From: Planctomycetota bacterium
GTDB lineage: Bacteria; Planctomycetota; PUPC01; DSUN01
Assembly (NCBI GenBank): GCA_035527715.1
Contig: DATKZY010000096.1
Coordinates: 4,350 to 68,349 of the forward strand
Direction: 5' to 3'
Length of the DNA: 64,000 bases
Shown here: positions 3 to 26,593 of the stretch, one piece after another
How positions within the stretch are numbered: the first letter of the stretch is position 1
How the letters are laid out: each line of letters begins with the position of its first letter
Program-made: the position numbers and the translations under genes
The notes under the pieces: model-generated
Databases searched by the model: none
What the model was told of the DNA's origin: nothing
What the model saw: the letters and a program-made list of their open reading frames with translations, nothing else

Positions 3-290
3 TTCTACACGATCACCAGCACCACCCCCGACAAGCGCCGCGCGACCCGCCTCAGGAGCTTCGTCCTCGACCCTGCCTCGCGACCCGCCGTCGTGGACCA
101 CGGCGAGCTGACCGACCAGGACGGCCGCGCCTGCCACGGCATCTGGGGAATGGACGTCCGCGACGGACGCGTCTTCATGATCGGCCGCTGGCTCGCCAGG
201 CCGGGCGAGGAGAAGACCATCGGCGTGGACCGCCACGGCACCTTCTTCACCGTCATCTTCTCCGTCGCGGATGTTTCGGCGGACCGGTGA
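3..290 (+). CDS. C-terminal fragment of an upstream gene (partial, unknown function)
   Basis: Frame 3 is open from the window edge to TGA at 288-290. The translation (...ACHGIWGMDVRDGRVFMIGRWLARPGEEKTIGVDRHGTFFTVIFSVADVSADR*) has mixed, protein-like composition. The stop overlaps the start region of the next gene. Confidence 0.4.
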   Translation, partial: FYTITSTTPDKRRATRLRSFVLDPASRPAVVDHGELTDQDGRACHGIWGMDVRDGRVFMIGRWLARPGEEKTIGVDRHGTFFTVIFSVADVSADR

Positions 291-327
291 TCTCGGCACG
301 CGCGGAGGGTGCCTCGACGGGGCACGC

Positions 328-2919: not shown

Positions 2920-2924
2920 CCTGA

Positions 2925-2954
2925 CCTCCCGCAGGTTCCAATACCTGCGGGAGG
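2925..2954. promoter_or_regulatory. Intergenic hairpin (CCTCCCGCAGG-TTCCAATAC-CTGCGGGAGG)
   Basis: Perfect 10-11 bp inverted repeat lying between membrane protein A and protein B. Confidence 0.5.
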
Positions 2955-2989
2955 TTGGCGGGGACAGCGGGTGCCTTGTTCCGACATTA

Positions 2990-3021
2990 CCCTCCCGCGG
3001 GTATTGGAACCCGCGGGAGGG
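2990..3021. promoter_or_regulatory. Second intergenic hairpin (CCCTCCCGCGG-GTATTGGAA-CCCGCGGGAGGG); its loop is the reverse complement of the first hairpin's loop
   Basis: Same stem family as 2925-2954 in the opposite orientation, about 35 bp away, just upstream of the RBS-like GGGAGGGAATAGG and the ATG at 3034. Confidence 0.5.
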
Positions 3022-3033
3022 AATAGGTGAGCG

Positions 3034-8202: not shown

Positions 8203-8278
8203 CGCGTGACGCGTGATCAGAGAAGAACAGAACCGCGCTCTTCTGGTCACGGGTCACGCGTCACAGGTCACGCATCAG
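8197..8278. repeat. Long imperfect hairpin built on the GTGACGCGTGAC motif (arms GTGACGCGTGACGCGTGATCAGAGAAGA and TCTTCTGGTCACGGGTCACGCGTCAC)
   Basis: An inverted repeat of about 28 bp with a 12-nt loop, sitting exactly at the junction between the stop of gene B (8200-8202) and the start of gene C. Same family as 12262-12345 and 41905-41925. Confidence 0.6.
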
Positions 8279-8291
8279 ACGGGCGAACACA

Positions 8292-10319: not shown

Positions 10320-10320
10320 G

Positions 10321-10443
10321 GAAGACAGGAGGAGGAATGATAGGGAACGCAGGAATGCAGGAAAGGAGAAGAGGCATGGGGACCGCGAAGCCAGTCGGCC
10401 TGGCCGCTCATCTTTCTTCTCCTGGTTTCCTGGCTTCCTTATA
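10321..10443. promoter_or_regulatory. Intergenic purine-rich / pyrimidine-rich complementary tract (potential long stem-loop)
   Basis: GGAAGACAGGAGGAGGAATGATAGGGAACGCAGGAATGCAGGAAAGGAGAAGAGG is followed by CTCATCTTTCTTCTCCTGGTTTCCTGGCTTCCTTATAGG. The two halves are broadly complementary. The tract lies between gene C and the FtsX gene. Confidence 0.35.
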
Positions 10444-10456
10444 GGATCTCTTGACG

Positions 10457-11467
10457 ATGCAGGAGCAGACCATCCTCTCAAGCGCCGACGTGCAGGACCA
10501 GGTGATCCTGCCCCTTCGGGTCGCCGTGGGCATGTGCCTGCGGGGCATTCGCACGCGGCTGGGGCGGTCGGCCATCACGCTGTTCGGCGTGGGGCTGGGC
10601 ATCGCGTTCCTGATGGCCGTGCTGTCGGGCTTCCACATTCAGCGGGCGATGACGGCCGAGGCAGCGAAGGCGCGCGACGTCGAGCGGCGCCTCGCCACGC
10701 TGCGGAGCGAGGTCGGCACGCTCAAGGGCAAGGCGTTCCTCGTGGCGGCACGCGAGCCGGGCGAGGCCGACTCGGCCTTCCTTCGCGCCCTCGCCGCGCA
10801 GGGCGCGGCCGTCCACGCGACCACGCTCGCCCAGCCGTCGGACGTCAGAGTCAGCGGCGCCCTGCTCCTGGGCAACTACGAGCCGCTGCTCGCGTCCGCC
10901 CCACCTGCCGTGCTCGCGGCGCAGCCGCTCTTCGCCTTCGGGAAGCCGACGCCAAAGGCAGCCGAGCGCGTGGCGGCAGCCAGCGGGCGGCTGCGGCATC
11001 TCGGCATCGAGCTGCGTCCCGAGGAAGTCGCCCAGGCGGCCCGCCGCGAGCGTCAGGCCACGTATCGCATGGCCTGGATCGTCGCGGTGTCGCTCCTCAT
11101 CACGGTCGGCTGCATCGCCAACGCGATGTTGATGTCGGTCACTGAGCGCTTCCGCGAGATCGGCACGATGAAGTGCCTGGGGGCGCTCTCCAGCTTCGTC
11201 GTCAAGCTCTTCCTCATCGAGAGTCTGCTGATGGGCCTGGTGGGCGCGGTGCTGGGCGTGCTGCTCGGCGTCGCCTTCCCGCTGCTGGCCTACGGCTACA
11301 CGTTTGGCGCGGCCAAGGTGTTCGTGGCCGTGGATTTCGCGACGCTCGGCCTCTACGCCCTGCTGTGCGTGGCGGCGGGGGTCGTGCTGGCCATTGTGGC
11401 GGCGATCTATCCCGCACGGGTCGCGGCGAAAATGGTGCCCGCCGCGGCCCTGGCGTCGCATGTCTGA
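10457..11467 (+). CDS. FtsX-family ABC transporter permease (second, conventional-size permease subunit)
   Basis: ATG at 10457 (MQEQTIL...); an in-frame TTG at 10451 is the alternative start. The N-terminal TM (RSAITLFGVGLGIAFLMAVLSG) and the C-terminal FtsX motif (FREIGTMKCLGALSSFVVKLFLIESLLMGLVGAVLGVLLG) are both present. Confidence 0.75.
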   Translation: MQEQTILSSADVQDQVILPLRVAVGMCLRGIRTRLGRSAITLFGVGLGIAFLMAVLSGFHIQRAMTAEAAKARDVERRLATLRSEVGTLKGKAFLVAAREPGEADSAFLRALAAQGAAVHATTLAQPSDVRVSGALLLGNYEPLLASAPPAVLAAQPLFAFGKPTPKAAERVAAASGRLRHLGIELRPEEVAQAARRERQATYRMAWIVAVSLLITVGCIANAMLMSVTERFREIGTMKCLGALSSFVVKLFLIESLLMGLVGAVLGVLLGVAFPLLAYGYTFGAAKVFVAVDFATLGLYALLCVAAGVVLAIVAAIYPARVAAKMVPAAALASHV

Positions 11468-12264: not shown

Positions 12265-12345
12265 CTCGTGACGCGTGACGCGTGGTCGGAACGCAAGCTG
12301 GCTTGCTCTCTTCCTGTCACGCGTCACGGGTCACGCGTCACGATG
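12262..12345. repeat. Long hairpin of the GTGACGCGTGAC family between the two ABC ATPase genes
   Basis: Arms CGTGACGCGTGACGCGTGGTCGGAA and TTCCTGTCACGCGTCACGGGTCACGCGTCACG, with an inner small hairpin GCAAGCTGGCTTGC. It begins at the stop of ATPase 1. Confidence 0.6.
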
Positions 12346-12373
12346 CCTGAACCGAAGGGATTGGCTGGAGCAA

Positions 12374-13120
<747 letters not shown>

Positions 13121-13512: not shown

Positions 13513-15144
13513 ATGCGGGAACTCGTCGTCGAGAAACGCTACCTCCACCTGCCCGTGAAGAACGGCGCGGCCAAGCAGCGGATGAAGGTGTCGGTGGGTG
13601 ACAAGATCGTGGACGAGTTCGACATCGAGCTGGCCGACGGCGAGCCCGACTTCTGGGTGTTCCTCGACATGGCCCCCTACAAGGGCCAGAAGGCCACGAT
13701 TGATGTCGGCCGTCTGCCCGAGGAATCCAAGGGCCTCGCCGCCATCACCCAGGCCGACGACGTGCCCGACGCGGCGAACCTCTACAAGGAGAAGTACCGC
13801 CCGCAGTTCCACTTCTCGTCGCGCCGCGGCTGGAACAACGACCCGAACGGCCTCGTCTTCCATAAGGGCGAGTACCACCTCTTCTACCAGCACAACCCCT
13901 ACGGCTGGAACTGGGGCAACATGCACTGGGGCCACGCCGTCAGCAAGGACCTGGTGCACTGGACCGAGCTGCCCGTCGCCATCTACCCCTTCCGCTATGG
14001 CGACTGGGTCTACAGCGGCAGCGCCATCGTGGACAAGGAGAACGCGGCGGGGTGGAAGAAAGGCGACGAGGACGTGATCGTCGCCGCCTACACCAGCACC
14101 GGCCGCGGCGAGGCCATCGCTTACTCGCTCAACCGCGGCCGCACCTTCACCGACTACGAGGGCAACCCCGTCGTCAAGCACAGCGGCCGCGACCCCAAGC
14201 TCATCTGGTACGCGGGGTCACATCTTCATTTCGCACTTGGCGGCAAAGTGCCAAATGAAGATGTGACCCCCGGACACTGGGTCATGGCCGTCTACGACGA
14301 GCACGAGGGCAAGCGCTGGATCGCCTTCCACACCTCGCCGAACCTGAAGGACTGGACGTTCCAGAGCCGCACCGAGGGCTATTTCGAGTGCCCCGAAATC
14401 TTCGAGCTGCCGGTGGATGGCGACAAGTCGAAGACCCGCTGGGTCATCTACGCCGCCGACGGGGCCTACGCCGTCGGCTCGTTCGACGGGAAGACCTTCA
14501 CGCCCGACCACCAGGGCAAGCACCGCTTCAACTGGGGCAATTGCTTCTACGCCTCGCAGACCTTCAGCGACATCCCCCCTGAGGATGGCCGCCGCATCCA
14601 GATCGCCTGGGGCCGCATCGGCCACAAGGACATGCCCTTCAACCAGATGATGAACTTCCCCGTCGTCCTCACCCTGCGGACGACCGACGAAGGCGTCCGC
14701 ATGTTCGCCGAGCCGGTCAAGGAGATCGCGCTTCTGCACGCGAAGAAGCATTCGTGGAATGGGCTGACGCTGAAGGAGGGCGAGAACCCGCTCAAAGGCA
14801 TCGAGGGCGACCTGTTCCACATCGTCGCCGAGTTCGAGCCGGGCGACGCGGCGCAGGTCGGCTTCAGCCTCCGGGGCACCCCCGTGGCCTACGACGCCAA
14901 GGCCCAGCAACTCGATGCCAAGGGCTGCAAGGCCGCGCTGAAGCCCGAGGGCGGGAAGATTCGCCTGGAGATGCTCGTGGACCGCACGTCGGTCGAGGTC
15001 TTCGGCAATCGGGGGCGCGTCTACATGCCCGTGGGTGTCATCCCGCCCGAGGACAATCGCTCGATCGAGGTCTTCGCCCGAGGCGGCGCCGCGAAGATCG
15101 TCTCGCTCGAGGTCAACAAGTTGCGTTCCGCCTGGCAGAAATGA
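13513..15144 (+). CDS. Glycoside hydrolase family 32 (beta-fructofuranosidase / levanase-like) carrying an in-frame 57-bp palindromic insertion
   Basis: GH32 motifs are present: WNNDPNGLVFHKGEYHLFYQHNP (NDPNG catalytic block), WGHAVSKDLVHWTELPVA, the RDP block (GRDPKLIWY) and the EC block (YFECPEIFEL). The ATG at 13513 follows a GGAG-rich stretch. An in-frame GTG at 13390 would add 41 aa of protein-like sequence, so the start is uncertain. Confidence 0.75.
   Translation: MRELVVEKRYLHLPVKNGAAKQRMKVSVGDKIVDEFDIELADGEPDFWVFLDMAPYKGQKATIDVGRLPEESKGLAAITQADDVPDAANLYKEKYRPQFHFSSRRGWNNDPNGLVFHKGEYHLFYQHNPYGWNWGNMHWGHAVSKDLVHWTELPVAIYPFRYGDWVYSGSAIVDKENAAGWKKGDEDVIVAAYTSTGRGEAIAYSLNRGRTFTDYEGNPVVKHSGRDPKLIWYAGSHLHFALGGKVPNEDVTPGHWVMAVYDEHEGKRWIAFHTSPNLKDWTFQSRTEGYFECPEIFELPVDGDKSKTRWVIYAADGAYAVGSFDGKTFTPDHQGKHRFNWGNCFYASQTFSDIPPEDGRRIQIAWGRIGHKDMPFNQMMNFPVVLTLRTTDEGVRMFAEPVKEIALLHAKKHSWNGLTLKEGENPLKGIEGDLFHIVAEFEPGDAAQVGFSLRGTPVAYDAKAQQLDAKGCKAALKPEGGKIRLEMLVDRTSVEVFGNRGRVYMPVGVIPPEDNRSIEVFARGGAAKIVSLEVNKLRSAWQK
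14214..14270. mobile_element. 57-bp palindromic MITE-like element, copy 1, inserted in frame inside the GH32 gene
   Basis: GGGGTCACATCTTCATTTCGCACTTGGCGGCAAAGTGCCAAATGAAGATGTGACCCC is a near-perfect inverted repeat. At 57 bp it is exactly 19 codons and encodes AGSHLHFALGGKVPNEDVT, which splits the RDPKLIWY and PGHWVMAV blocks that are contiguous in GH32 enzymes. Confidence 0.75.
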
Positions 15145-15151
15145 GGGAGCC

Positions 15152-16465
15152 ATGACGATGAAGCGACGGGATTTCCTCAAGGCGACAGGTCTGGGCGTCG
15201 CGCTGCTGCCCGCGGGCCAGCAGCTCGCACGGGCGGGCGAGGCGCCGACGGCCGCCAGGCCCAACGTCGTCCTCATCATTTCGGACGACCAGGGCTTCGG
15301 CGACCACGGCTTCATGGGCCACGACGCCATCCAGACGCCGCGGCTGGACCGCCTGGCCTCCGGGAGCGTGGTCTTCACGCGCGGCTACGTGACGGCGCCG
15401 CTGTGCGGCCCGTCGCTCGCCACGCTGCTCACGGGGCTGTATCCCCATCAGCACCGCATCACGGGCAACGACCCCGGCGGGCGCGGCCCGCGCGCGCCGT
15501 TCTTCGAGGCATTCGAGAAATGCCCCCGGCTGCCCGAGATCCTAGGCCGCGCGGGCTACGCGAGCTTCCAGTCGGGCAAGTTCTGGATGGCGCACTACTC
15601 GCGTGCCGGCTTCACGGACGGCATGACGGTCAAAGGCCGCCACGGCGAGGCCGGCCTGAGCATCGGGCGCCAGACGATGAAGCCGGTCCTCGACTTCGTG
15701 GACAAGGCGAAGGCGGACGGCAAGCCGTTCTTCCTCTGGTACGCGCCCATGATGCCCCACCTGCCGCACAACCCCCCGCCCCGCCTGCTCGACAAGTACA
15801 AGGCGAAGACCGACAACCTGCCCCTGGCCAAGTACTGGGCGATGTGCGAGTGGTTCGACGAATCGTGCGGCCAGCTCCTCGACCACCTCGACCAGCAGGG
15901 CCTGCGCGAGAACACGCTCGTGGTCTACGTGTGCGACAACGGCTGGGTGCAGCCCGACCCCAAGCGGCCCGGGCACGGCGCCGGCCGCGGCAAGCTCACG
16001 CCCTACGATGGCGGCCTTCGCACCCCCATCATGCTCCGCTGGCCGGGCAGGCTCGCGCCGCGGATGGACCGCGAGCACCTCGCCAGCAGCCTCGACCTCG
16101 TGCCCACCATCCTCGCCGCCTGCGGCCTGAAGCCGCCCCCCGAGATGCCGGGCCTCAGCCTGCTGGACGAGAAGGCCGTCGGCGCGCGCGACGCGGTCTT
16201 CGCCGAGTACTACACTCACGACATGGCCGACGTCGCCGCCCCGGCCAAGAGCCTGCGGGCGCGCGTGTGCATCCAGGGCGACTGGAAGCTCATCCTCTGG
16301 CAAGGCCTGCAGCCCAAGGTCGGCAGGCCAGCCGCTGCGCCGCCGGCGAAGGCGGAGCTGTACCACCTGAAGGACGACCCCTTCGAGAAAGCGAACCTCG
16401 CAGAGAAGCACCCCGACAAGGTGGCCGCCCTCACGAAGCGCCTCGACGAATGGTGGCGCCCCTGA
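15152..16465 (+). CDS. Sulfatase-family (alkaline phosphatase superfamily) protein with a Tat signal and a non-canonical CGPSL active-site motif
   Basis: Twin-arginine signal MTMKRRDFLKATGLGVALLPAG. Sulfatase N-terminal block VVLIISDDQGFGDHGF and TAPLCGPSLATLLTG are present; the canonical motif is C-x-P-x-R, and here Arg is replaced by Leu. The start follows GAGGGAGCC, 7 bp after the GH32 stop. Confidence 0.8.
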   Translation: MTMKRRDFLKATGLGVALLPAGQQLARAGEAPTAARPNVVLIISDDQGFGDHGFMGHDAIQTPRLDRLASGSVVFTRGYVTAPLCGPSLATLLTGLYPHQHRITGNDPGGRGPRAPFFEAFEKCPRLPEILGRAGYASFQSGKFWMAHYSRAGFTDGMTVKGRHGEAGLSIGRQTMKPVLDFVDKAKADGKPFFLWYAPMMPHLPHNPPPRLLDKYKAKTDNLPLAKYWAMCEWFDESCGQLLDHLDQQGLRENTLVVYVCDNGWVQPDPKRPGHGAGRGKLTPYDGGLRTPIMLRWPGRLAPRMDREHLASSLDLVPTILAACGLKPPPEMPGLSLLDEKAVGARDAVFAEYYTHDMADVAAPAKSLRARVCIQGDWKLILWQGLQPKVGRPAAAPPAKAELYHLKDDPFEKANLAEKHPDKVAALTKRLDEWWRP

Positions 16466-16487
16466 TCCCGTAAGGACTCCACGGCCC

Positions 16488-18182
16488 ATGGCAGACTCGC
16501 GCGCCGCGTTTCGGAACCTGAAGCAGGATGCCGAGGTGCCTGTGCTCATCCTCGGCGGCGGCGTGAACGGCGCCGGCCTGTTCCGCGAGCTGGCGCTCCA
16601 GGGCGTCGAGTGCCTGCTGGTGGACAAGGCGGACTTCGTCGCGGGCGCCAGCTCGAAGTCGTCGCGGATGATCCACGGCGGCCTCCGCTACCTGGAGAGC
16701 CGCGAGTTCAAGCTCGTCCGCGAGTCGCTCCTCGAGCGCAACCGCCTGCTCGACAACGCGCCCCACTACGTCACGCCGCTGAAGACGACGATTCCCCTGT
16801 TCTCCTGGCTCGGCGGCGCGCTCCACTCCGTCCTGATCTTCCTCGGCTGCGACGTGCGGCCCGGCGGGCGCGGCGCGCTCCTGGTCAAGCTCGGCCTGTC
16901 CTTCTACGACTTCGTCACCCGCAAGAACCGCCGCACGCCCCGCCACTTCCTCACAGGCAGAGCGAAGTCCCTCCGCGAGCTGCCCGGCCTGAACCCCCAC
17001 ATCAAGGCCACCGCGACCTACTGGGACGCGCAGATTTCCGAGGCCGAGCGCCTGTGCATCGAGATGCTCCAGGACGCCTGCTCCGCCAACCCCGCCTGCC
17101 GCGCGCTCAACTACGTGCGGCCCGAGAAGGTCGAGGGCGGAGCCGTCGTCCTCCGCGACGAGGTGACGGGCGAGACCGCCACCGTACGGCCCCGCATCGT
17201 GGTGAACGCCACGGGGGCGTGGGTGGACCTCGCCAACGCGGCCCTCGGGCTGGCGACGCACTTCATGGGCGGCACCAAGGGCTCGCACCTGGTCGTGGAC
17301 TGCCCAGAGCTCCACAAGACGCTCGGCGACCGAATGGTCTACTACGAGCACAAGGACGGCCGCGTCTGCATCGCCTTCACTTTCATGGGCAAGGTGCTGA
17401 TGGGCTCGACCGACCTCCGCGTGGACGACCCCGACGCGGCGCACTGCGAGGAGGACGAGATCGCGTACATGCTGACGACCCTGCGGGGCGTGTTCCCAGG
17501 CATCGAGATTCGCCGCGAGCAGATCGCCTACGTCTTCTGCGGCGTCCGTCCCCTGCCCGCGAGCGGCAAGGGGGTCACGGCCATCATCAGCCGCGGCCAC
17601 AGCATCCGCGTCGTCGAGCCCGAGGGGGAGCGGCCCTTCCCCGTCTTCTGCCTCATCGGCGGCAAGTGGACGACGTTCCGCGCCTTCGCCGAGCAGGTCG
17701 CCGACCAGATTCTGCCCCGCCTGGGCGTCGAGCGCCGCTGCTCGACCCACGACCTCCCCATCGGTGGCGGGGGCAACTTTCCCGCTGATGGGCACGCGAA
17801 GGAGCAGTGGATCTCACGCCTCGCCGAGGAGTCGGGCGCGAGCCGCGAGCGCGTCGCCGCTCTCCTCGCACGCTACGGCACGGTCGCCGAGGCGTACCTG
17901 GCGAAGGCCGACGCCCGGGCCGAGAGCCCGCTGAAGTCCCTCCCCGACTACACCGTTGGCGAGATCGAGCGGATCGCCGCGACCGAGCAGGTCGTGCACC
18001 TGGCCGACCTCCTCTGCCGTCGCAGCACCATCGCCATCCGCGGCCTGGCCACTGCCCCCGTGCTCGGGGAACTGGCCGACATCGTCGGCTCGGTGCTCGG
18101 CTGGGCCCCCCCCCGTCGGCAGGCGGAGGTCGCCCTCGCGCTCGGCGAGATGGCGGTCCCCAAGCTCCCCCCGGCACGATGA
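16488..18182 (+). CDS. glpD: FAD-dependent glycerol-3-phosphate dehydrogenase (GlpD-like)
   Basis: GGGVNGAG FAD fold, SSKSSRMIHGGLRYLE, VVNATGAWV, KGSHLVV, FCGVRPL and LIGGKWTTFR all match conserved GlpD blocks. Confidence 0.85.
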   Translation: MADSRAAFRNLKQDAEVPVLILGGGVNGAGLFRELALQGVECLLVDKADFVAGASSKSSRMIHGGLRYLESREFKLVRESLLERNRLLDNAPHYVTPLKTTIPLFSWLGGALHSVLIFLGCDVRPGGRGALLVKLGLSFYDFVTRKNRRTPRHFLTGRAKSLRELPGLNPHIKATATYWDAQISEAERLCIEMLQDACSANPACRALNYVRPEKVEGGAVVLRDEVTGETATVRPRIVVNATGAWVDLANAALGLATHFMGGTKGSHLVVDCPELHKTLGDRMVYYEHKDGRVCIAFTFMGKVLMGSTDLRVDDPDAAHCEEDEIAYMLTTLRGVFPGIEIRREQIAYVFCGVRPLPASGKGVTAIISRGHSIRVVEPEGERPFPVFCLIGGKWTTFRAFAEQVADQILPRLGVERRCSTHDLPIGGGGNFPADGHAKEQWISRLAEESGASRERVAALLARYGTVAEAYLAKADARAESPLKSLPDYTVGEIERIAATEQVVHLADLLCRRSTIAIRGLATAPVLGELADIVGSVLGWAPPRRQAEVALALGEMAVPKLPPAR

Positions 18183-18623
18183 CTCCACCCCCCCGCTCAC
18201 CGCGACGCGTTTGGAGGCGATTTGGGGCCTCCGGCGCCGGCAAAGGGGCTTCGGGGCCGATTTCCACAAGCGTCCCGAGATACTACACTTACGCTCCCGG
18301 GAGCCCTCTCCCCGGGGCTCGAAGGTATCAGGAGCCCAGTGTCCCTCTCCGGACGCGTTGTACGCGTTCCTACGCAGTTTTCCGGAGCAAGGTTGTAAGC
18401 CATTGGCATGCAGATACTTAGCAGTGTCATATAACGGTACGCTCTTGGCTGTGCGGCATGTTGCCCAAATGGGATTGCTCGCCCTTCACGGCGCCACCAC
18501 GACTGGTTCACGCCAGACATTCGTCCCGGGGTCATTCTGAGCGAAGTGGCACGGAGCGAAGAATCTCGGCTCATCCGCCCCGAGCGATCATCCGCGCGGC
18601 TCTCGACCCGCGTCTCGCCCACC

Positions 18624-18662
18624 AGGCGCTCACGTGTGCGCTATGGGGGGTGAGCGCCTAGC
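18624..18662. repeat. Palindromic element copy 1: AGGCGCTCAC-gtgtgcgctatggggg-GTGAGCGCCTAGC
   Basis: 12-bp stem with a 16-nt loop, inside a roughly 1-kb lower-GC noncoding region. A near-identical copy lies at 18759-18797. Confidence 0.6.
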
Positions 18663-18758
18663 TGGGGGCGGCCGAGCAAGCGGCATGGCAGCCCTAAGAG
18701 CCTGATCTGCCAAAGGTTACAGCCAGTGGAGAGTCCCACACAGCTGGCTAGTTGCGCT

Positions 18759-18797
18759 AGGCGCTCACGTGTGCGCTATGGGGGGTGAGCGCCTAGC
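18759..18797. repeat. Palindromic element copy 2 (TAGGCGCTCACGTGTGCGCTATGGGGGGTGAGCGCCTAGC)
   Basis: Identical stem and loop to copy 1, 135 bp downstream. Confidence 0.6.
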
Positions 18798-19166
18798 GCG
18801 GGGCGCCTGGGTGGGCCGCTCCGGGCGATCGCTTGAGGCGGATGAGCCAGATTTGACACCCGTCTATGGGCTTGCACCCCTGGGCCAGGAGAGATGCTTC
18901 GCTTCGCTCAGCATGACCGCGGTCGGCGCTGGCCTCGGGGCGTCGGGGTCGTTCGGGCAGCGTTCGGCGCGTGAGGCGGCTTGGGCAACACGCCCTATGG
19001 ACCCCGGTCGAGGCGGGGTGAAGCGGTGCGGGAGGAGGCGCTGCAATGGATGCCAACCGCGCATCGCCCGGGTTGGCATTCATTGCGGGGCGGGCGTCGC
19101 GGAGGACTTGCCCGGCCCCCAGACGCAGTTCCGCACGGGGAAGCGCAGGCATCCCGCGGCTGCTCC

Positions 19167-20891
19167 TCAGGGCTTCGGTTCCTGGAGCTGACGGGCGAGG
19201 GCGCCGACGGCGGCGTGGTCGGCAAGCGAGCGAGCGAGGGGTTGGGCGCGCTCCAGCGCGGCCCGGGCGGCGTCGCGACGGCCGAGGGCGAGCTCCGCGC
19301 GGCCGAGGGCGAGCCAGGGCTCCAGGCGCTCGGGAGCCAGCTCCGTGCTGCGGCGATAGCCTTCGGCGGCCTCGGCGAGGCGTCCCAGGGCCTCGAGGGC
19401 GCGCCCGAGCGCGAGGTGGCCCTCGGCCGCCTTCGGGTCGAGCTGGATGGCGCGGCGGAAGCACTCGATGGCGCGGTAGAAGCGCCGCTGGCTGTGGTGC
19501 CAGTGGCCGCAGGCGAGGTGCACCTGGGGATTCGCGGGGTCGAGCTGGAGCGCGCGCGCGAAGTCGCGCTGGGCGCCCGTCTCGTCGCGGCGGCTGGCGG
19601 CAAAGGCGGCGAGGCGCAGGCGCACGGCCGGGTCGTCGGGGTGGCGGCTCGCCGCTTCGGCCAGCTCGGCCAGCGCCAGGGCCACGTCGCCGTGGTGCGC
19701 GTAGGCGTCCACCAGGCGCCCGTGGGTGACGGCCGAGCGGTCGCCGAGGTCGAGCGCGCGCTGGTAGGCCCGCGCGGCGTCGCCGAACTGGCCCGCGACC
19801 ATCAGCGCGTCGCCCAGCAGGCGGCGGGCGAGCGGGCTGTCGAGGTCCAGCTCCATCGTCTCCCGGTGCAGGGCCACGGCGCGCTCGGGCTGGCCGAGGC
19901 CCACGTAGGCGTCTCCGAGCAGGGCGCGGGCCTCCATCTGGAGCGGCTCGCGCTTCACCACGCCGTCGAGCACCGCGATGGCCGCCTCGCACTGCCCGCC
20001 GCGGACCAGCGCCGCGCCGAGGCAGAGCTGGCCGGCGAGCGACTGCGGCTCGGCTTCGAGGCCCCGCCGCGCCTCGGCGAGGGCGTCGTCGGTGCGGCCG
20101 ACGGCGAGCAGGCAGGCCGAGAGCTCGAAGCGCAGCGGCGTCCGCTTCGGGTCGCGTGCGAGCAGCTCCGCGAGCAACGCGACGGCCTGCGCGGCCCGGC
20201 CGGTCACGCGCGCGACCCAGGCGAGGCCGCGGCGCGCGGCGAGAGCCGTTTCGGGCACCCCGCTGAGTTCGCGGAACGTGGGTTCGGCCTCCTCGGGCTT
20301 GCCGTTGGCGGCCAGTGCGGTGGCCAGGGCGAGGCGCGCGTGCGGGTCGTCGGGGAACCGCTTTGCGGCGAGCCGGGCCTGGTCGAGCGCCGCCTCGGGG
20401 CGGCCCGCCTGCTGCTGGAGCGCGGCCAGGTTGACGCAGGCCGCGGGATCGCTGGGGTCGGCGCGGATGGCGCGCTGGTACGTGCGCTCGGCCGCGCGGA
20501 GGCGCCCCGCGGCGGCATAGGCGGCGGCGAGGTTGTTGAGGTAAGCGGCTGGCGGGCGCCCGCGGCTGGCGCGGCGGAAGCGGGCGACGGCCTCCTCGAC
20601 GCGTCGCTCCTCGTAGGCGATCAGCCCCAGGCCGTTGTGGGCGGCGGCGAGGTGCGGCGCATCGCCGAGGGCAAGCCGGTAGAGGCGTTGGGCCTCGGCT
20701 CGACGCCCCGCCTCGAGCGCGTGCAGCGCCTCGTCGGCCCGGCGGGCCGCCCGCTCGCGCGCGGCCCGACGGGCCGGCGAGGAGCAGCCGCAGAGCGCGA
20801 GCACCGCAAGGAGCGCCAGCCAACGCCGCGCAGGGGATTCAGGACTCAGGGCTTCGGCGCGGGCGCGCTGTCTCCACTCCGCAATCCGCAT
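19167..20891 (-). CDS. TPR-repeat lipoprotein
   Basis: Start MRIAEWRQRA, with a lipobox-like LAVLALCGCSS, followed by at least 12 TPR-like repeats (AxxxxGxALxxxGRxxEAxxxYxRALxLDP pattern). The real frame lies inside the much longer shadow ORF 19167-21614. Confidence 0.7.
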   Translation of the reverse strand: MRIAEWRQRARAEALSPESPARRWLALLAVLALCGCSSPARRAARERAARRADEALHALEAGRRAEAQRLYRLALGDAPHLAAAHNGLGLIAYEERRVEEAVARFRRASRGRPPAAYLNNLAAAYAAAGRLRAAERTYQRAIRADPSDPAACVNLAALQQQAGRPEAALDQARLAAKRFPDDPHARLALATALAANGKPEEAEPTFRELSGVPETALAARRGLAWVARVTGRAAQAVALLAELLARDPKRTPLRFELSACLLAVGRTDDALAEARRGLEAEPQSLAGQLCLGAALVRGGQCEAAIAVLDGVVKREPLQMEARALLGDAYVGLGQPERAVALHRETMELDLDSPLARRLLGDALMVAGQFGDAARAYQRALDLGDRSAVTHGRLVDAYAHHGDVALALAELAEAASRHPDDPAVRLRLAAFAASRRDETGAQRDFARALQLDPANPQVHLACGHWHHSQRRFYRAIECFRRAIQLDPKAAEGHLALGRALEALGRLAEAAEGYRRSTELAPERLEPWLALGRAELALGRRDAARAALERAQPLARSLADHAAVGALARQLQEPKP

Positions 20892-20916
20892 TCCGCAGTT
20901 CGCAATCCTGAGGGGG

Positions 20917-22044
20917 CTACTTGCCGGGGTAGCTCTCGAACTTGGCGATGAGCCGCCAGAGGCCCTGCACCTCGCCGCGGTGGAAGCACTGCTCGGGGTA
21001 CCAGCTATTGAGGGGGCGCAGCCGCACGACGTTATTGGCGTCGAAGAAGACCTGGCGGAGGGCGCTGCCCTCGCGGGTGACGACGAAGGCGAGGTCGCCG
21101 CTGCGCGCCGGCACGTTGGGCGAGAAGACCACCACGTCGCCCCGGTCGAACGACGGCGCGCCGCTGTGCCGCATCGTGTTGTCGTGGATTTCCAGGGCGA
21201 AGGCATCGCGGTCGGTGATGCCGGGCAGGAGGAGCTGGCCCTTGGGCGCGCCGCGCAGGAGGAGCCCCGCGTCGGCCTTCGTCTCGATGCCGGCGATGAG
21301 GTCGTAGAGGGGGACGGACGCCGGGGGCTCGGGCCTCGACGGCTCCTGGGCCTCGGGCGCGGCCTCGGCTCGGGGGAGGGGCGGCGGCGCGGACTCGGCC
21401 TCCTTCGGCGCTCCCTCGACGGCGGGCGCCTCCTCCTCCGGGGGGGCCGGCGGCGTCTCGGCAGCCGCGGGCGCATCAGGGCCGGCGACGGGAGCGGGCG
21501 GCGCCGACGGCTCGGCCGGCACGCCCGGCGGCGGCGTCTCGCCGCTGGGGGCCTCGGCGGGGGCTGGCGAGGGCTCGCCCTCCGCCGCGTCGTCGTAGAC
21601 CCGGGGCAGCTCACCCGCCGCGGGCGGCTCGATATGGAGTGGGAACCGCCGCGCGAGGGCCGCCTCCATCTCGCGCTTGCGCTGGTCGGGCACCGACCAG
21701 TGGCGCTCCTCGAGCGAGCGCAGCAGGCTGATGTCCTCCGCCGACGGGCTCAGGAAGCGCACGCCCATGCGGTACGAGCTGCGGTCGGCGACGCGCTTCG
21801 CCCACACGACCTCGCCGTGCGCGATCAGCGCCCGGAAGGCGCTGGGGATGATCACCTTCAGGTCCAGCCGCTGCCCGACCTCGTACAGATCGTCGCTGAC
21901 GAACTGGAGCCCTGCGACCGACAGGTCAATGAGGGGGGAAACCTTGGGCGCGCCCTTGAAGAACGACAGGGCCGCATGCTTGCGGTACTCGACCGTGGAG
22001 TCCTCGACCGCAAAACGCCGGTTTCGTCTGCCGCGTATCGGCAT
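20917..22044 (-). CDS. PilZ domain protein fused to a LexA/S24-peptidase-like C-terminal domain whose catalytic residues appear substituted
   Basis: PilZ motifs RGRRNRRF (RxxxR) and DLSVAGLQF (DxSxxG). A Pro/Ala/Glu-rich linker follows, then an S24-like block IHDNTMRHSGAPSFDRGDVVVF (GDSM -> DNTM) and VVRLRP where LexA has the catalytic Lys (K -> R). The start MPIRGRRNRRF corresponds to a CAT at 22042-22044. Confidence 0.65.
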   Translation of the reverse strand: MPIRGRRNRRFAVEDSTVEYRKHAALSFFKGAPKVSPLIDLSVAGLQFVSDDLYEVGQRLDLKVIIPSAFRALIAHGEVVWAKRVADRSSYRMGVRFLSPSAEDISLLRSLEERHWSVPDQRKREMEAALARRFPLHIEPPAAGELPRVYDDAAEGEPSPAPAEAPSGETPPPGVPAEPSAPPAPVAGPDAPAAAETPPAPPEEEAPAVEGAPKEAESAPPPLPRAEAAPEAQEPSRPEPPASVPLYDLIAGIETKADAGLLLRGAPKGQLLLPGITDRDAFALEIHDNTMRHSGAPSFDRGDVVVFSPNVPARSGDLAFVVTREGSALRQVFFDANNVVRLRPLNSWYPEQCFHRGEVQGLWRLIAKFESYPGK

Positions 22045-22138
22045 GCCCTCTGCCCTCCGTCGCGGCTCAGCAGCCGCGGACAGCCCGCCCGATGCCCCAT
22101 TATTGTAGTGCTGGCCGCGGCGCGTGTCAATAGCAGCC

Positions 22139-22166
22139 TTGACGTTTGCGGGCGCGCCACTATAAT
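22139..22166 (+). promoter_or_regulatory. Strong sigma70-like promoter: TTGACG, 16-nt spacer, TATAAT
   Basis: TTGACG at 22139-22144 and consensus TATAAT at 22161-22166, in the divergent intergenic region between the PilZ gene and the GspE-like ATPase. Confidence 0.65.
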
Positions 22167-22197
22167 CAGGGTGTTCCCACGGGTAGGGGCAACGACA

Positions 22198-23259
22198 GTG
22201 GAGCGCTCTGCGCCCGAAGTGCTCGAGGAGCTGGTGCGATGCGCCGAGGCCGGCGGCGCCAGCGACATCCACCTCCACAGGGGGCCGGAGCGCACCGAGG
22301 TGGCCTTCCGCCTCGACGGCTGCCTGGCCCGCGTGGAGGCCCTGCCCGACGAATTGGCCCGGCACGTCTTCGGGCGCATCAAGTACCTCGCCCGGCTGAA
22401 GACCTACCAGGAGTCGCTCCCCCAGGAGGGGCGGATCGAGAAGGCCAACCTCGGGGCGCGGAGCGACGTCCGCGTGGCCACGTACCCCACCGTGACGGGC
22501 GAGAAGATCGTCCTGCGGCTCTTCTCGTCGTGCGAGGTGCTGGCCCTCGAGCAGCTCGGCCTGCGACCCGACGCCCGGGCGGCCCTCGAGGGCTTCCTGG
22601 CCCGCCCCGCCGGCACGCTGCTGCTGACCGGGCCGGCCGGCAGCGGCAAGACCACCACCATCTACGCCTGCCTCCAGCACCTGGCCGCCCGCACCGGCCG
22701 CCACATCATCACCATCGAGGACCCCGTCGAGCAGGTGGTCCCCGGCGTGATGCAGACCGAGGTGAACCCGGCGGTGGGCCTCGACTTCGCCAAGGCGGCG
22801 CGGCACCTGCTGCGCCAGGACCCCCAGGTGCTGGTCCTCGGCGAAATCCGCGACGAGGAGACCGCCAACCTCGCGCTCCGGGCCGCCTTCACCGGCCACA
22901 TGGTCATCTCCACCCTCCACGCCGGGTCGTGCCGGGGCGTGTTCGAGCGCCTGTTCGGCATGTGCGACGACCGCTACGCCGCCATCGCCGCCGTCGAGAT
23001 GATTCTCAACCAGCGCCTCGTCCGAAAGCTCTGCCCCCAGTGCGGCGGGGAGGGCTGCGACGCCTGCCTCCGCACCGGCTACCGGGGCCGCGTGCCCGCC
23101 GTCGAGTGGCTGGCGCTGGACGAGTCGCTGCGGGCGCGGCTCCGCGAGCAGGGCGCCGCCGCCGCGGCCCCGACGCCGCCCCTGGAGGCGGAGGGGCGGC
23201 GCCTCGTCGCCCAGGGCATCACCAACGAAGCCGAATATGCGAGGGTCTTCGGGCCGTGA
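22198..23259 (+). CDS. GspE/PilB-family secretion ATPase, core domain only (no N-terminal N1E/N2E domains), with a C-terminal CxxC...CxxC
   Basis: ASDIHLHRG (compare ASDIHIEP), Walker A LLLTGPAGSGKTTT, Asp box, Walker B VLVLGEIRDEE and His box TGHMVISTLHAG are all present. The GTG at 22198 lies about 30 nt past the -10 box; the start is uncertain and an in-frame GTG at 22171 is the alternative. Confidence 0.8.
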   Translation: MERSAPEVLEELVRCAEAGGASDIHLHRGPERTEVAFRLDGCLARVEALPDELARHVFGRIKYLARLKTYQESLPQEGRIEKANLGARSDVRVATYPTVTGEKIVLRLFSSCEVLALEQLGLRPDARAALEGFLARPAGTLLLTGPAGSGKTTTIYACLQHLAARTGRHIITIEDPVEQVVPGVMQTEVNPAVGLDFAKAARHLLRQDPQVLVLGEIRDEETANLALRAAFTGHMVISTLHAGSCRGVFERLFGMCDDRYAAIAAVEMILNQRLVRKLCPQCGGEGCDACLRTGYRGRVPAVEWLALDESLRARLREQGAAAAAPTPPLEAEGRRLVAQGITNEAEYARVFGP

Positions 23260-24251
23260 AGCACGACGAATTCGCCTTCTTCAACGAGCAACTCGCCCAC
23301 ATGCTCCGCGACGGCATTCCGCTGGAGGGCGCCATGGCGGCGCTTTGCCGCAGCATGCGGCGCGGCCGGCTGCGGGCCGAGCTGGACGCCTTGCGGGCCG
23401 CCCTCGCCAGCGGCACGCCCATCGAGGAGGCGCTCGCGAGCCGCCGCCTGCCGACCCTCTACACGAGCATGGTCAAGGTCGGCGTCAAGGCCAACAACCT
23501 CCCCGCCGTCCTCACGCGGCTGGCCGACCACTACCGCGAGACGGGCGCCGTGTGGGCGCGGCTCAAGGGCCTGCTCGTCTACCCCGCGCTCGTCCTGGCG
23601 CTGGCGTTGGGCGTCTCGGTGTTCCTGGCGCTCTACCTGGGGCCGGCGTTCGCCGAGTTCGCTGAGGATAGCGGCTTCCTCAGTCTCGGGGGCGGTTCGT
23701 CCCTCCTGGGCGTGCGGCTCGTGGCCGCGCCGGCGATCGTGGCCGGGCTGCTGGTGGCCCTGGTGGCGGCGCTCGCGCTGCGGCCGGTGCGGCGGTGGCT
23801 GCGGTGGCGCCTGTCGCCGCTCAAGGAGGCCAGCCTGGCGCAACTGGCGTCGGGCCTGGCCTTGATGCTCCGCGGCGGGTGCAGCCTGGCCGATGCCGTG
23901 GCCCTTCAGCGCGAGCTCGAGGGGCGCACCCTGGCGGGGGCCGACCTCGCCCGCATCGGCGAGCGCCTGGCCGACGGCGCCACGCACTTCAGCGAGATGG
24001 CCGAGGACGCCGTGGCGCTCCCGCGGCTGTTCGTGTGGATGGTCGAGAACGCCGGCGAGGACATGGCGGGCGGCTTCGAGCGTGCCGCGCTGCTCTACCG
24101 CACGCGCGCCGGCCATCGCACCGAGATGCTCCTCTACGCCGCGCTCCCGTGCTCGATCCTGGTGCTGGGCGGCATGCTCCTCGCCCAGGTCTCCGCGGTC
24201 CTCCTGCCGCTCATCGAGCTGATGCGGCAGATCGGCGGGGGTGGAATGTGA
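23256..24251 (+). CDS. Type II secretion system F-family (GspF/PilC-like) inner-membrane protein 1
   Basis: GTG start that overlaps the GspE stop as GTGA. The N-terminus FFNEQLAHMLRDGIPLEGAM resembles the T2SSF domain, and three TM segments are predicted. Confidence 0.75.
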   Translation: MKHDEFAFFNEQLAHMLRDGIPLEGAMAALCRSMRRGRLRAELDALRAALASGTPIEEALASRRLPTLYTSMVKVGVKANNLPAVLTRLADHYRETGAVWARLKGLLVYPALVLALALGVSVFLALYLGPAFAEFAEDSGFLSLGGGSSLLGVRLVAAPAIVAGLLVALVAALALRPVRRWLRWRLSPLKEASLAQLASGLALMLRGGCSLADAVALQRELEGRTLAGADLARIGERLADGATHFSEMAEDAVALPRLFVWMVENAGEDMAGGFERAALLYRTRAGHRTEMLLYAALPCSILVLGGMLLAQVSAVLLPLIELMRQIGGGGM

Positions 24252-24261
24252 GTGCACGCCC

Positions 24262-25560
24262 ATGATGCCCGTGGCCTGCCCCCTGGCGCCGCCCGCCTTC
24301 ATTCACCCATACACCACGGTCGTGGTCACCGACGGGCTTCTGGCCCTCCTGAAGGTGCTCCTGTGGGTGTTCGTCACGGTCGTGGTGCCGTACGTGGTCT
24401 ATCGCCTCATGTCGCTGCCGCTGCGGCGGCAGGAGCGGGCGCGGCTGTTCCTCGACGTGCTGGAGAGCGCCGTGGCGCGCGGCAAGAGCGCGGAGGAGGC
24501 GCTCGTGTCGCTCGCCGCGATCGAGCCGCTCGGCGTGCTGGCGCGGTTCGGGTGGCTCGGCGCCCTGCTCTTCCGCTGGCCGTATCACCTCTTCTGCGGC
24601 GTGTTCGGCATCCGGCGCGACGAGGTGGTGTTCGGCAGGGGCGTCCGCAACGTCGGCGAGCGGCTGATGAACGGCGTGCCGCTGCACGAGGCGGTCGAGC
24701 CGCGCGACAACCTGCTGCCCGCCCAGGTGATCGCCACGCTGCGCGTGGGCGGCGAGGTGGGCGACCTCACGAAGGTGCTGCCGGCGTGCCGGCAGGTGCT
24801 GGCCGACGCGGCCTCGCGCACGCGGGCCGCGATGAACTACCTGGCGCTGATGCTCATCGGCGCCTCGTTCCTGGCGCTGCCCGTGCTCGCCTGGATGAGC
24901 CTCCGCGTGACCCCCCTGTTCGAGGAGATGATGGGGGACATGCGGTTCTCGATGCCGCCGGTCTTCGGCCTCCTGCGGGGGCCGGGGGACTACCCGTGGG
25001 TCTTCCTCGCCATGCTCGCCGTGGCAGCCGTGCTGTTCGTCGGGGCGCTGCTCTACATGGGCGGGCCGAGGCTCGTGCGGGCGCTGCGGCTGGGCCCGGC
25101 CGCGGGCTGGCTCCAGTACCACCTGCCCTGGCGGCGGAAACGGCTCCAGCGCGACTTCTCGGCCATGCTCGCCATCCTGCTCGACGCCGGGGCGCCTGAG
25201 CCCGACGCCGTGGCGAAGGCGGCCCAGAGCACGGCCAACCCGCTTCTCCTCCGCCGCGCGACGCGGGCCACGCTGGCGATGAAGCGGGGCGACCCGCTCA
25301 CCGAGGCCGTGGCGCGGCTGGACGACTCGGGCGAGTTCCGCTGGCGCCTGGCCAACGCCGCACACGTGGGCACCGGCTTCGCCGAGGCCCTGGCCGGCTG
25401 GCAGCAGTCGCTCGACGCCCGGGCCTTTCAGCAGGAGCAGGCCGCGGCGCACGTGATCACCAGCGCGATCACGCTCGTCAACGGCCTGGTCGTGGCCCTC
25501 GTGGCCCTTGGAGTGTTCCAGTGCCTCATGACCGTCATCAACGCGTGTCTGCCCTGGTGA
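24262..25560 (+). CDS. Type II secretion system F-family (GspF/PilC-like) protein 2
   Basis: Start MMPVACPLAPP, with GTG 24241 as the alternative start. TM helices alternate with cytoplasmic T2SSF-like helical bundles (LPAQVIATLRVGGEVGDLTKVL). Confidence 0.7.
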   Translation: MMPVACPLAPPAFIHPYTTVVVTDGLLALLKVLLWVFVTVVVPYVVYRLMSLPLRRQERARLFLDVLESAVARGKSAEEALVSLAAIEPLGVLARFGWLGALLFRWPYHLFCGVFGIRRDEVVFGRGVRNVGERLMNGVPLHEAVEPRDNLLPAQVIATLRVGGEVGDLTKVLPACRQVLADAASRTRAAMNYLALMLIGASFLALPVLAWMSLRVTPLFEEMMGDMRFSMPPVFGLLRGPGDYPWVFLAMLAVAAVLFVGALLYMGGPRLVRALRLGPAAGWLQYHLPWRRKRLQRDFSAMLAILLDAGAPEPDAVAKAAQSTANPLLLRRATRATLAMKRGDPLTEAVARLDDSGEFRWRLANAAHVGTGFAEALAGWQQSLDARAFQQEQAAAHVITSAITLVNGLVVALVALGVFQCLMTVINACLPW

Positions 25561-25916
25561 GAGGGCGCCGCTCGGGGTTCGCCCTGATCGAGCTGACGGT
25601 CGCCGTGGGCGTCCTGGCGGTCGTGATGGCGGCGTTCGCCGTCGCCTGCCACACCGACCAGCAGGCCCTCCGCGCGAACTACTACCGGGCCATCGCCATC
25701 GAGATCGTGGACGGCGAGATGGAGGCGCTGGTCGCGGGCGAATGGCGCGCGGTTCCCGAGGGCGCCCACGCCTACCCGGTGCGCGCCGACGCCGCACGGA
25801 ACCTGCCCGACGGGCGTTTCACCCTCACCCTCGCGGGGCGGCACCTGCGCCTCGAATGGGCGCCCGCGCGCTCCGGCAACGGCGGATGCGTCGTCAGGGA
25901 GGCCGAGGTCCGATGA
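25557..25916 (+). CDS. Pseudopilin with a prepilin-type N-terminal cleavage/methylation motif
   Basis: RRSGFALIELTVAVGVLAVV is the classic GF-x-LIE type IV pilin class III signal. Its start overlaps the upstream stop as GTGA. Confidence 0.7.
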   Translation: MRGRRSGFALIELTVAVGVLAVVMAAFAVACHTDQQALRANYYRAIAIEIVDGEMEALVAGEWRAVPEGAHAYPVRADAARNLPDGRFTLTLAGRHLRLEWAPARSGNGGCVVREAEVR

Positions 25917-26395
25917 ACGTCGCACGCTCATCCCGCCGCGGCTTGACCCTCATCGAGCTGCTCGTCTACATGGGCGTGCTCACCATCGTCGTCGGGGTCG
26001 CCTGGCTCGTCTACTACCGGTGCATCGAGCACTCGCTCGGCGTGCTGCGAAACGTGGACGACATCACCCGCGCGCTCAAGTCGGGCGAGCGGTGGCGGAC
26101 CGAGGTCCGCCGTGCCACGGCCCCGCCGCGGCTGGTGGACGGCGTGCTGCACGTCGCCACGCCTGACGGCGACGTGCTGTTCAAGTTCGCCGGCGACGCC
26201 GTGCTGCGGAAGGGGGCCGCGGAGGCCAGGTGGGCGCCCTTCCTCCCGAAGGTCAAGGCATCCAGGATGCAGCTCGACGAGGGCAAGCACGTCAGCTCGT
26301 GGCGCTGGGAGGTGGAGCTGGAGAGCAGGGCGAAGGCGGGCATCCGCCCCCTGTTCTCGTTCCGCGCGGTGCCGAGCGGCCGCGCGCCGAGGTGA
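25913..26395 (+). CDS. Second pseudopilin with a prepilin-type N-terminal motif
   Basis: RRGLTLIELLVYMGVLTIVVGVAWLVYY. Its ATG overlaps the upstream stop as ATGA. Confidence 0.7.
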   Translation: MNVARSSRRGLTLIELLVYMGVLTIVVGVAWLVYYRCIEHSLGVLRNVDDITRALKSGERWRTEVRRATAPPRLVDGVLHVATPDGDVLFKFAGDAVLRKGAAEARWAPFLPKVKASRMQLDEGKHVSSWRWEVELESRAKAGIRPLFSFRAVPSGRAPR

Positions 26396-26398
26396 CCC

Positions 26399-26593
26399 AT
26401 GCTCGAGGGAAAACGCAGGCGGACCCGGCGACGCAGGGGCGTGGGCCTGATCGTGGTCCTCGTGCTCATGGCCGTCACGGCCACCTACGTGTTCACGAAC
26501 GCCGCGGCGCTCCACAGGCTCAAGAGCTACCTCGACCTCGTCGAGCGGCAGCACAGGGCGCGGCACGCGACGCCCCCGCCCGCCAGGCCGTGA
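26399..26593 (+). CDS. Small single-TM protein (64 aa), possibly a minor T2SS-module component
   Basis: ATG 3 bp after the pseudopilin stop. Basic N-terminus plus one TM helix (GVGLIVVLVLMAVTATYVF). Confidence 0.4.
   Translation: MLEGKRRRTRRRRGVGLIVVLVLMAVTATYVFTNAAALHRLKSYLDLVERQHRARHATPPPARP

Follow-up and report, generated by a model that had tools for sequence, protein, structure and literature searches.

What does a LexA-type S24 domain do when it is joined to a second-messenger receptor, and can it still cut itself? These questions are raised by a gene for a protein with a PilZ domain, a long linker and an S24-like domain (PilZ-S24), located in a 64,000-nucleotide (nt) stretch of DNA from a Planctomycetota bacterium (assembly GCA_035527715.1, contig DATKZY010000096.1, positions 4,350-68,349 of the forward strand), here called the window. 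An earlier reading of the DNA letters (the original prediction) had placed the gene at 20917-22044, which coincides exactly with a minus-strand open reading frame (ORF) of 375 codons that begins with ATG at 22044; the G+C content of the window is ~70%, and true reading frames show the order GC3>GC1>GC2, as expected. The encoded protein is interpreted here, with moderate confidence, as a non-cleaving receptor for cyclic di-GMP (c-di-GMP), whose S24 domain would serve for dimerisation or partner binding. The gene and its three parts are the following:

20917..22044, minus strand: PilZ-linker-S24-like gene, 375 amino acids (aa) plus stop (translation; Pfam PilZ and Peptidase_S24)
21640..22044, minus strand: PilZ domain with C-terminal helices, residues 1-135 (AlphaFold2 model, Foldseek)
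21319..21639, minus strand: disordered, acidic, Pro/Ala/Glu-rich linker, residues 136-242, ~107 aa (AlphaFold2, composition)
20920..21318, minus strand: LexA/lambda cI-type S24-like domain with cleavage-site-region hairpin, residues 243-375 (Pfam, PDB profile search, Foldseek)

The S24 assignment of the C-terminal domain, for which the original prediction had proposed a profile check, stands on the agreement of three approaches. Pfam Peptidase_S24 (PF00717) matches residues 276-356 (E 4.5e-9; 36.5 bits against a cutoff of 23.3), and a profile search of the PDB recovered lambda cI (E 4e-6) and Thermotoga LexA (E 7e-4). Foldseek, applied to an AlphaFold2 (AF2) model built from 33 family sequences, matched the domain to 2HNF/2HO0, 3K2Z and 1F39 (TMt 0.52-0.77), the matches being fragments of lambda cI with the cleavage-site region (2HNF, 2HO0), the LexA proteins of Thermotoga and E. 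coli, and the C-terminal domain of cI. In the model, residues 243-372 are all-beta and open with a long hairpin (243-272); the cleavage-site hairpin is strongly conserved in the family. With the C-terminal domain of lambda cI, LexA and UmuD (MEROPS S24, PF00717), PilZ-S24 thus shares the fold, including the hairpin of the cleavage-site region, a framework consisting of an xxSM-type turn and the motifs P-x-F-x-x-GD, GD(F/L) and L-x-P-L-N, and the common layout of an N-terminal functional head followed by a flexible linker and S24. It differs from these proteins by Thr for Ser, Arg for Lys and Asp for the Gly of GxSM, by its PilZ head and ~100-aa acidic linker, by the lack of SOS genes nearby, and by a predicted absence of autocleavage. 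The positions on which this prediction turns are listed here:

21175..21177, minus strand: T290 (codon ACG), position of the nucleophilic Ser, aligned with cI Ser149 in GNSM
21055..21057, minus strand: R330 (codon CGC), position of the general-base Lys, aligned with cI Lys192
21289..21294, minus strand: A251-G252, homologue of the scissile Ala-Gly, at +6/+7 from a conserved Pro

The catalytic positions were located with phmmer against the PDB and with a profile of the C-terminal 135 residues. Both align HDNTM with EGNSM of cI and set T290 on lambda cI Ser149, in accordance with the original prediction, which had read DNTM (residues 288-291) in place of GDSM and a Ser-to-Thr exchange; the Gly of GxSM, two residues before the nucleophile, is replaced by Asp (D288 in HDNTM). 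For the general base, ALRQVFFD aligns with FTFKKLIRD of cI, and in the K192A chains 8GMU and 2HNF the substituted Ala sits exactly opposite R330. R330 also aligns with the Lys of F-K-Q-(V/I)-F-F-(D/E) in close relatives that read GDSM/GNSM and carry an XRE-type helix-turn-helix (HTH) head (HTH_XRE-S24 proteins); since these relatives carry Lys in FKQ(V/I)FF, R330 replaces their Lys, and this alignment is an independent and stronger argument for its placement than the PDB alignment. The original prediction had located the Lys-to-Arg exchange in VRLRP; it was right in kind and named the wrong residue, because VRLRP (residues 340-344) lies on another strand, equivalent to VFLQP of cI, and the counterpart of the Lys is R330 in ALRQVFF. 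Within the close family of 33 sequences the nucleophile position is occupied by T in 24, S in 8 and I in 1, and the general-base position by R in 32 and G in 1; the window protein therefore has neither the nucleophilic Ser (LexA S119 / cI S149) nor the general-base Lys (LexA K156 / cI K192).

The loss extends to more distant members. Among representatives of PilZ-fused clusters at 50% identity, none carries Lys at the general-base position; 20 have Arg and the rest V, A, S, T, L or G. The nucleophile varies among T, S, I, G, A and E across PilZ-fused proteins (S 14, T 2, G 2, E 1 and A 1 in the Arg clusters). Non-PilZ relatives keep the Ser in 38/40 Lys-bearing versus 35/51 Arg-bearing cases (Fisher p=0.0015, a value that is indicative only, because cluster representatives are not phylogenetically independent events); the lower retention of Ser alongside Arg is an indication in the direction expected from relaxed selection on the nucleophile once the Lys is lost. 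The scissile bond of S24 autoproteases is Ala-Gly (or Cys-Gly) within the cleavage-site region (PMC8565304). The window protein reads V-P-L-Y-D-L-I-A251-G252 in this region, in the same register as (V/I)P(V/L)(F/Y)-x-x-x-A-G of active HTH relatives (e.g., P0085 and P0088, which keep Ser and Lys), so that it retains Ala-Gly at the homologous site; the 33 aligned sequences have AG in 22, TG in 6, TA in 3, AA in 1 and AR in 1. The variation of the dyad and the variable P1/P1' pair support a non-proteolytic S24 domain, and the same judgement in the original prediction, where it was derived from one sequence, now has comparative evidence behind it: a Ser-Lys dyad that is lost, no Lys in PilZ-fused clusters, and a drifting nucleophile. 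By these residues PilZ-S24 appears as a clear S24 pseudo-peptidase.

The HTH_XRE-S24 phage-type repressors (P0081-P0088, P0091, P0094) share with PilZ-S24 the motifs SF-x-x-GD(I/V)V(V/I)FS, GD(F/Y)AFV, F(K/R)Q(V/I)FF(D/E) and VRL-x-PLN as well as the P-x-x-x-x-x-A-G spacing; they differ in their HTH head, and 25/56 of the HTH-bearing matches keep Ser and Lys and are presumably cleavable. In a further 19/56, which belong to the same S24 subclade, GDSM (or DDSM) is intact and Arg takes the place of the general-base Lys (examples are P0079, P0084, P0092, P0100, P0103, P0109, P0123, P0135 and P0166), and in others the Ser is replaced by A, E or D; these Ser+Arg and A/E/D+Arg proteins parallel the loss in PilZ-S24. 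Such proteins may form a large unrecognised class of LexA/cI-like repressors that are non-cleavable or differently activated, and many of those with Ser+Arg are probably mis-annotated as cleavable repressors.

At the other end of the protein, the PilZ head is identified by Pfam PilZ (PF07238) at residues 37-110 (E 5.4e-10; 40 bits against a gathering cutoff of 22.5), a match found in 32/33 family members; the NCBIfam search gave only a sub-threshold PilZ-type paralogue domain. In the AF2 model, residues 11-135 form a beta-barrel with two helices (102-116 and 120-133), at a predicted local distance difference test score (pLDDT) of 84-96 over residues 11-130; the six-stranded barrel and C-terminal helix expected of a PilZ domain are present (strands 17-98, helix 102-116, pLDDT >90). 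Foldseek against the PDB matched the head to the c-di-GMP-bound PilZ domains of Alg44, MapZ, YcgR and BcsA (TMt 0.6-0.76 against 4XRN, 4RT0 and 5XLY). Its two ligand-binding motifs, as defined in a survey of PilZ proteins (10.1101/814665), are located as follows:

22015..22029, minus strand: RxxxR motif, R6 R7 N8 R9 R10 (read from sequence)
21910..21927, minus strand: [D/N]hSxxG motif, D40 L41 S42 V43 A44 G45 (D/N in 32/33, S in 29/33, G in 32/33)

The first motif is followed by F-A-V and fits the RxxxRhxh pattern; R4 and R10 occur in every aligned homologue, and 31-32/33 have R6, R7 and R9. Both motifs are kept in most of the distant PilZ-S24 clusters, and the intact RxxxR and DxSxxG signatures noted in the original prediction (R6-R10 and D40-G45) proved to be conserved in 29-33/33 homologues. 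On this basis the protein is predicted to bind c-di-GMP; from the canonical PilZ receptors (MapZ/PA4608, the PilZ domain of Alg44, the C-terminal domain of YcgR) it is set apart by its S24-like output partner. A reading of the N-terminal RRNRRF as a Tat signal was rejected, as the Arg residues fit the PilZ RxxxRhxh pattern and have no hydrophobic h-region behind them.

The linker between the two domains has a P+A+E fraction of 0.71 and a pLDDT <50 over most of residues 141-219; it ranges from 63 to 114 aa among the 33 aligned sequences, and its sequence is not conserved. In the distant relatives P0048, P0049, P0051, P0053, P0054, P0055, P0065 and P0078, the Pro/Ala/Glu linker is replaced by a conserved helical insert ('RPVALLELI..LE.FEV.DDL(I/V)L.V.EA.E.G..VEDLF'), and several of these relatives have degenerate PilZ motifs.

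The combination of the two domains recurs. A word-indexed search yielded 42 homologues, all from metagenomes, 47-87% identical, and 40/42 with both domains; an exhaustive profile search gave 1354 matches at E<=1e-3 and 31 at E<=1e-30, and ~30 more distant clusters (50% identity) consist of full-length PilZ-X-S24 proteins, 310-640 aa long. Because it recurs in 40/42 homologues and in ~30 distant clusters, the architecture is more than a chance fusion. A pseudogene or decaying gene was rejected, both domains being strongly conserved across the 47-87% identical homologues. All named homologues among the 42 were assigned to Planctomycetota, and when one genome per GTDB species was scanned, three PilZ-S24 loci emerged, all in metagenome-assembled genomes of uncultured Planctomycetota; as far as sampled, the family is restricted to uncultured members of this phylum. 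No paper describing a PilZ-S24 fusion came up in full-text literature searches, the searches for LexA K156R and for PilZ with S24/LexA returned nothing usable, and the PilZ survey (10.1101/814665) lists no architecture with S24. Within the literature searched, the fusion of PilZ with a LexA-type S24 domain is a PilZ output architecture that is undescribed; the attached partner is what defines a PilZ receptor, and a LexA-type attachment is new in that literature.

The genomic context of the family was evaluated in loci obtained by exact-protein look-up, a genome scan and a metagenome scan (29 fetched, 16 distinct), which were searched by tblastn with the window proteins; the upstream-region alignment disregarded sequence L019x. 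Three features of the window are relevant here:

19167..20891, minus strand: gene for a TPR lipoprotein, 574 aa, starting 25 nt after the PilZ-S24 stop (many Pfam TPR families)
22046..22058, minus strand: Shine-Dalgarno-like GGAGGG / GAGGG directly 5' of the PilZ-S24 ATG (read from sequence)
22102..22130, minus strand: sigma-70-type promoter TTGACA-N17-TACAAT of the PilZ-S24/TPR operon (11/12 consensus matches)

A TPR homologue lies directly downstream on the same strand in 15/16 distinct loci, i.e., in every locus with enough sequence except L025, and the gap between the two genes ranges from -4 to about +170 nt in the loci obtained by exact-protein look-up; the co-occurrence with the downstream TPR lipoprotein, proposed as a check in the original prediction, is therefore borne out. 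In L025 (3792-4187 and downstream), the TPR homologue is absent within 5 kb, and a different ORF of ~384 aa is found instead. The TPR protein carries a signal peptide as well as a lipobox (L-C-G-C36) whose Cys36 is invariant in seven aligned orthologues. Its identification as PrsT, PilW or Tgl was rejected, the NCBIfam scores remaining under the cutoffs (153.8 vs 312, 112 vs 154 and 78 vs 225, respectively), and so was PgaA or BcsC, with scores far below curated cutoffs; the similarity of the partner appears to be to TPR proteins generically. The link between PilZ-S24 and the TPR protein is a genomic one; a functional coupling of the two is inferred.

The promoter matches the sigma-70 consensus at 11/12 positions, against 0.0 expected in shuffled sequence. 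In the upstream regions of 11 PilZ-S24 loci its hexamers (GCTATTGACAC ... CACTACAAT) are the only conserved block, ~55-60 nt 5' of the start codon, and they are kept whatever gene adjoins upstream; a G-rich block is kept at the 3' end of the alignment. Because the promoter is conserved as the sole upstream block, the PilZ-S24/TPR pair is an autonomous unit with a near-consensus promoter of its own. An Rfam search at E<=1 gave no match to a riboswitch or other RNA in 18500-23500.

Taken together, the favoured reading is that of a cytoplasmic receptor. Its PilZ domain would bind c-di-GMP through R6xxxR10 and D40-L-S-x-x-G45, and a flexible acidic linker of ~100 residues would tether it to a C-terminal domain that keeps the S24 fold and cleavage-site hairpin while its dyad is lost (Thr290, Arg330); with the Ser-Lys dyad lost, this domain is predicted not to digest itself. 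Besides cutting, S24 domains dimerise and bind partners, as in LexA, cI and UmuD. The S24 domain of PilZ-S24 would retain both homodimerisation and partner binding, and the protein would then act as a bivalent adaptor controlled by c-di-GMP, apparently derived from an HTH_XRE-S24 repressor ancestor by replacement of the DNA-binding head with PilZ and probably transcribed from its own promoter together with the TPR lipoprotein, whose gene is the only conserved genomic partner. The reading is preferred because the layout is that of LexA and cI and the non-cutting role of S24 domains is dimerisation and partner binding. LexA-like proteins without catalytic residues, such as the non-SOS LexA of Synechocystis, keep their S24 domain as a structural or dimerisation module once they can no longer cleave, and they remain HTH-bearing regulators that bind DNA; PilZ-S24 likewise keeps its S24 domain after the loss, but its head is a second-messenger receptor instead of an HTH. 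The family would thus represent a phage/LexA-type repressor scaffold that was reused after the loss of its DNA-binding head and catalytic dyad. Almost nothing is known of c-di-GMP outputs in Planctomycetota, and the PilZ-S24/TPR-lipoprotein operon offers a concrete, testable candidate effector pair.

Several observations weigh against this interpretation. Of the close homologues, 32/33 have a hydroxyl residue (Thr or Ser) where the nucleophile belongs, Arg330 and Gln331 hardly vary, and A251-G252 is kept in the window protein; the catalytic site clearly keeps some role, structural or otherwise. Residual or altered chemistry may persist there, and either this or a structural role is conceivable because these residues are retained. 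The AF2 model contains two confident domains whose mutual arrangement is undefined (predicted template-modelling score 0.42). Moreover, the TPR partner is a predicted periplasmic lipoprotein and PilZ-S24 has neither a signal peptide nor a transmembrane segment, so that direct contact between the two is not obviously possible.

The same retained residues are the starting point for the view that the protein still cleaves itself, using a non-canonical Thr/Ser-Arg pair; c-di-GMP bound to PilZ, not RecA*, would trigger the cut at A251-G252 and part PilZ from S24. The Ala-Gly pair in register with that of active relatives, the strongly conserved cleavage-site hairpin, the retained hydroxyl, R330 and Q331, and the frequency of GDSM with Arg among the HTH relatives, which could make Ser-Arg a working variant, fit this view; however, several PilZ-fused clusters have I, G, A or E at the nucleophile position, the P1/P1' pair is TG, TA, AA or AR in 11/33 sequences, Ser is significantly less conserved in Arg than in Lys variants (with the restriction on independence given above), and the Gly of GxSM has become Asp in HDNTM. 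The chemistry counts against it as well: at physiological pH the guanidinium of Arg serves poorly as a general base, and in Ser-Lys peptidases the nucleophile is poorly replaced by Thr. Continued self-cleavage is therefore considered unlikely. A related proposal, that the S24 domain is a switchable pseudo-substrate clamp or a residual Thr/Arg autoprotease under the control of c-di-GMP instead of RecA*, is very unlikely; if it were true, c-di-GMP on PilZ would release or cut the Ala-Gly hairpin, and the messenger signal would be converted into an irreversible or conformational output in a Planctomycetota-specific envelope pathway with the TPR lipoprotein.

The non-cleaving receptor also has to be weighed against a role in transcription, given the relatives of its S24 domain. 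The closest S24 sequences are HTH_XRE-S24 proteins, many with Ser and Lys intact, and the source annotations of family members include not only 'PilZ domain-containing' but also 'SOS-response transcriptional repressor LexA' and 'phage repressor protein C with HTH'; the latter two are wrong, because the PilZ-S24 protein lacks both HTH and dyad. As the original prediction had observed, no HTH is evident: Pfam and NCBIfam contain no match to an HTH or other DNA-binding family even at E<=10, and the N-terminus is PilZ. The head-linker-S24 layout is shared with LexA and cI, and the closest relatives carry an HTH in front of S24; the most economical history would be a swap of the head domain (HTH to PilZ), the S24 domain of that lineage having lost its catalytic Lys either beforehand or afterwards. 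A phage or defence origin was considered and rejected; the only PHROGs match was a weak one to an S24 family without known function, and PADLOC had no match for the PilZ-S24 protein.

The shared layout and the HTH-S24 proteins as closest relatives could be taken to mean that the protein is a c-di-GMP-dependent transcription factor, a LexA/cI-style repressor in which S24 dimerises and a basic PilZ domain stands in for the HTH and contacts DNA as in MrkH. The net charge of the PilZ region (+7) and the presence of the PilZ-type regulator MrkH among the Foldseek matches agree with this, yet MrkH requires an additional N-terminal PilZ-like domain that PilZ-S24 lacks, the linker carries a net charge of -17 that would be unfavourable beside DNA, and no DNA-binding family was found in Pfam or NCBIfam. 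Nor does the upstream-region alignment show a conserved palindrome or operator; only the -35 and -10 hexamers are kept. A DNA-binding function of this kind is accordingly regarded as improbable.

Upstream of PilZ-S24 and divergent from it, the window contains a compact module resembling a type II secretion system (T2SS) or type IV pilus (T4P) machine (22204-26593, plus strand), near which no secretin or prepilin peptidase was seen; it consists of:

start ~160 nt upstream of PilZ-S24, plus strand: GspE-type ATPase, 351 aa, without N-terminal domains
23256-24251, plus strand: GspF
24241-25560, plus strand: divergent second GspF-like protein
25521-25916 and about 25910-26395, plus strand: ORFs with prepilin-like N-termini
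26399-26593, plus strand: 64-aa transmembrane ORF

The 160-nt intergenic region contains two back-to-back promoter-like sites (22102-22166; minus strand 22130-22102, plus strand 22139-22166), each with 11/12 matches to the sigma-70 consensus where shuffles lead to an expectation of none; only the minus-strand site is conserved elsewhere. This proximity raises the possibility that PilZ-S24 regulates the divergent T2SS/T4P-like machine through its GspE/PilB-type ATPase, as in the PilZ-FimX-PilB system of Xanthomonas; PilZ-type proteins that interact with PilB have been described (10.1101/814665). However, tblastn with the window GspE, GspF1 and GspF2 found no homologue in any of the 29 loci fetched (16 distinct); among them are L009 and L017, the latter 77% identical, with the TPR gene and the convergent GlpD synteny in common and 1.2 kb of upstream sequence available. 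In addition, the PilZ-S24 promoter is conserved independently of the upstream gene. Because the module is absent from all other PilZ-S24 loci, its adjacency is incidental, the link to it that the original prediction had put forward does not hold, and regulation of this machine by PilZ-S24 is highly improbable.

Around the PilZ-S24/TPR pair, two further kinds of neighbour are found repeatedly in other loci. A HEAT_2 protein, often with PEGA, is encoded directly upstream in L003 (7131-8873), L004 (7411-8871), L008 (6931-8781) and L009 (1385-3721). Convergent downstream genes encode a GDPD glycerophosphodiester phosphodiesterase in L001 (12510-13229), L006 (11864-12583) and L008 (11836-12552), and a GlpD-like glycerol-3-phosphate dehydrogenase in the window (16371-18182, plus strand), as in L017. 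L003 also contains a stand-alone Peptidase_S24 protein of 156 aa, of UmuD-like size, at 14492-14962, 4.4 kb downstream of its PilZ-S24 gene. Farther away in the window, the plus-strand interval 181-11467 encodes a DUF6785/DUF6784 protein (912 aa), a 1723-aa protein with Peptidase_M28 and FtsX-permease domains, a 700-aa protein without a Pfam match and a second FtsX-like protein, and an ABC ATPase follows at 12272-13120. Elsewhere in the window are sulfatase, FGE-sulfatase, GH32, GH4 and heparinase-like genes, which are typical of Planctomycetota that degrade polysaccharides.

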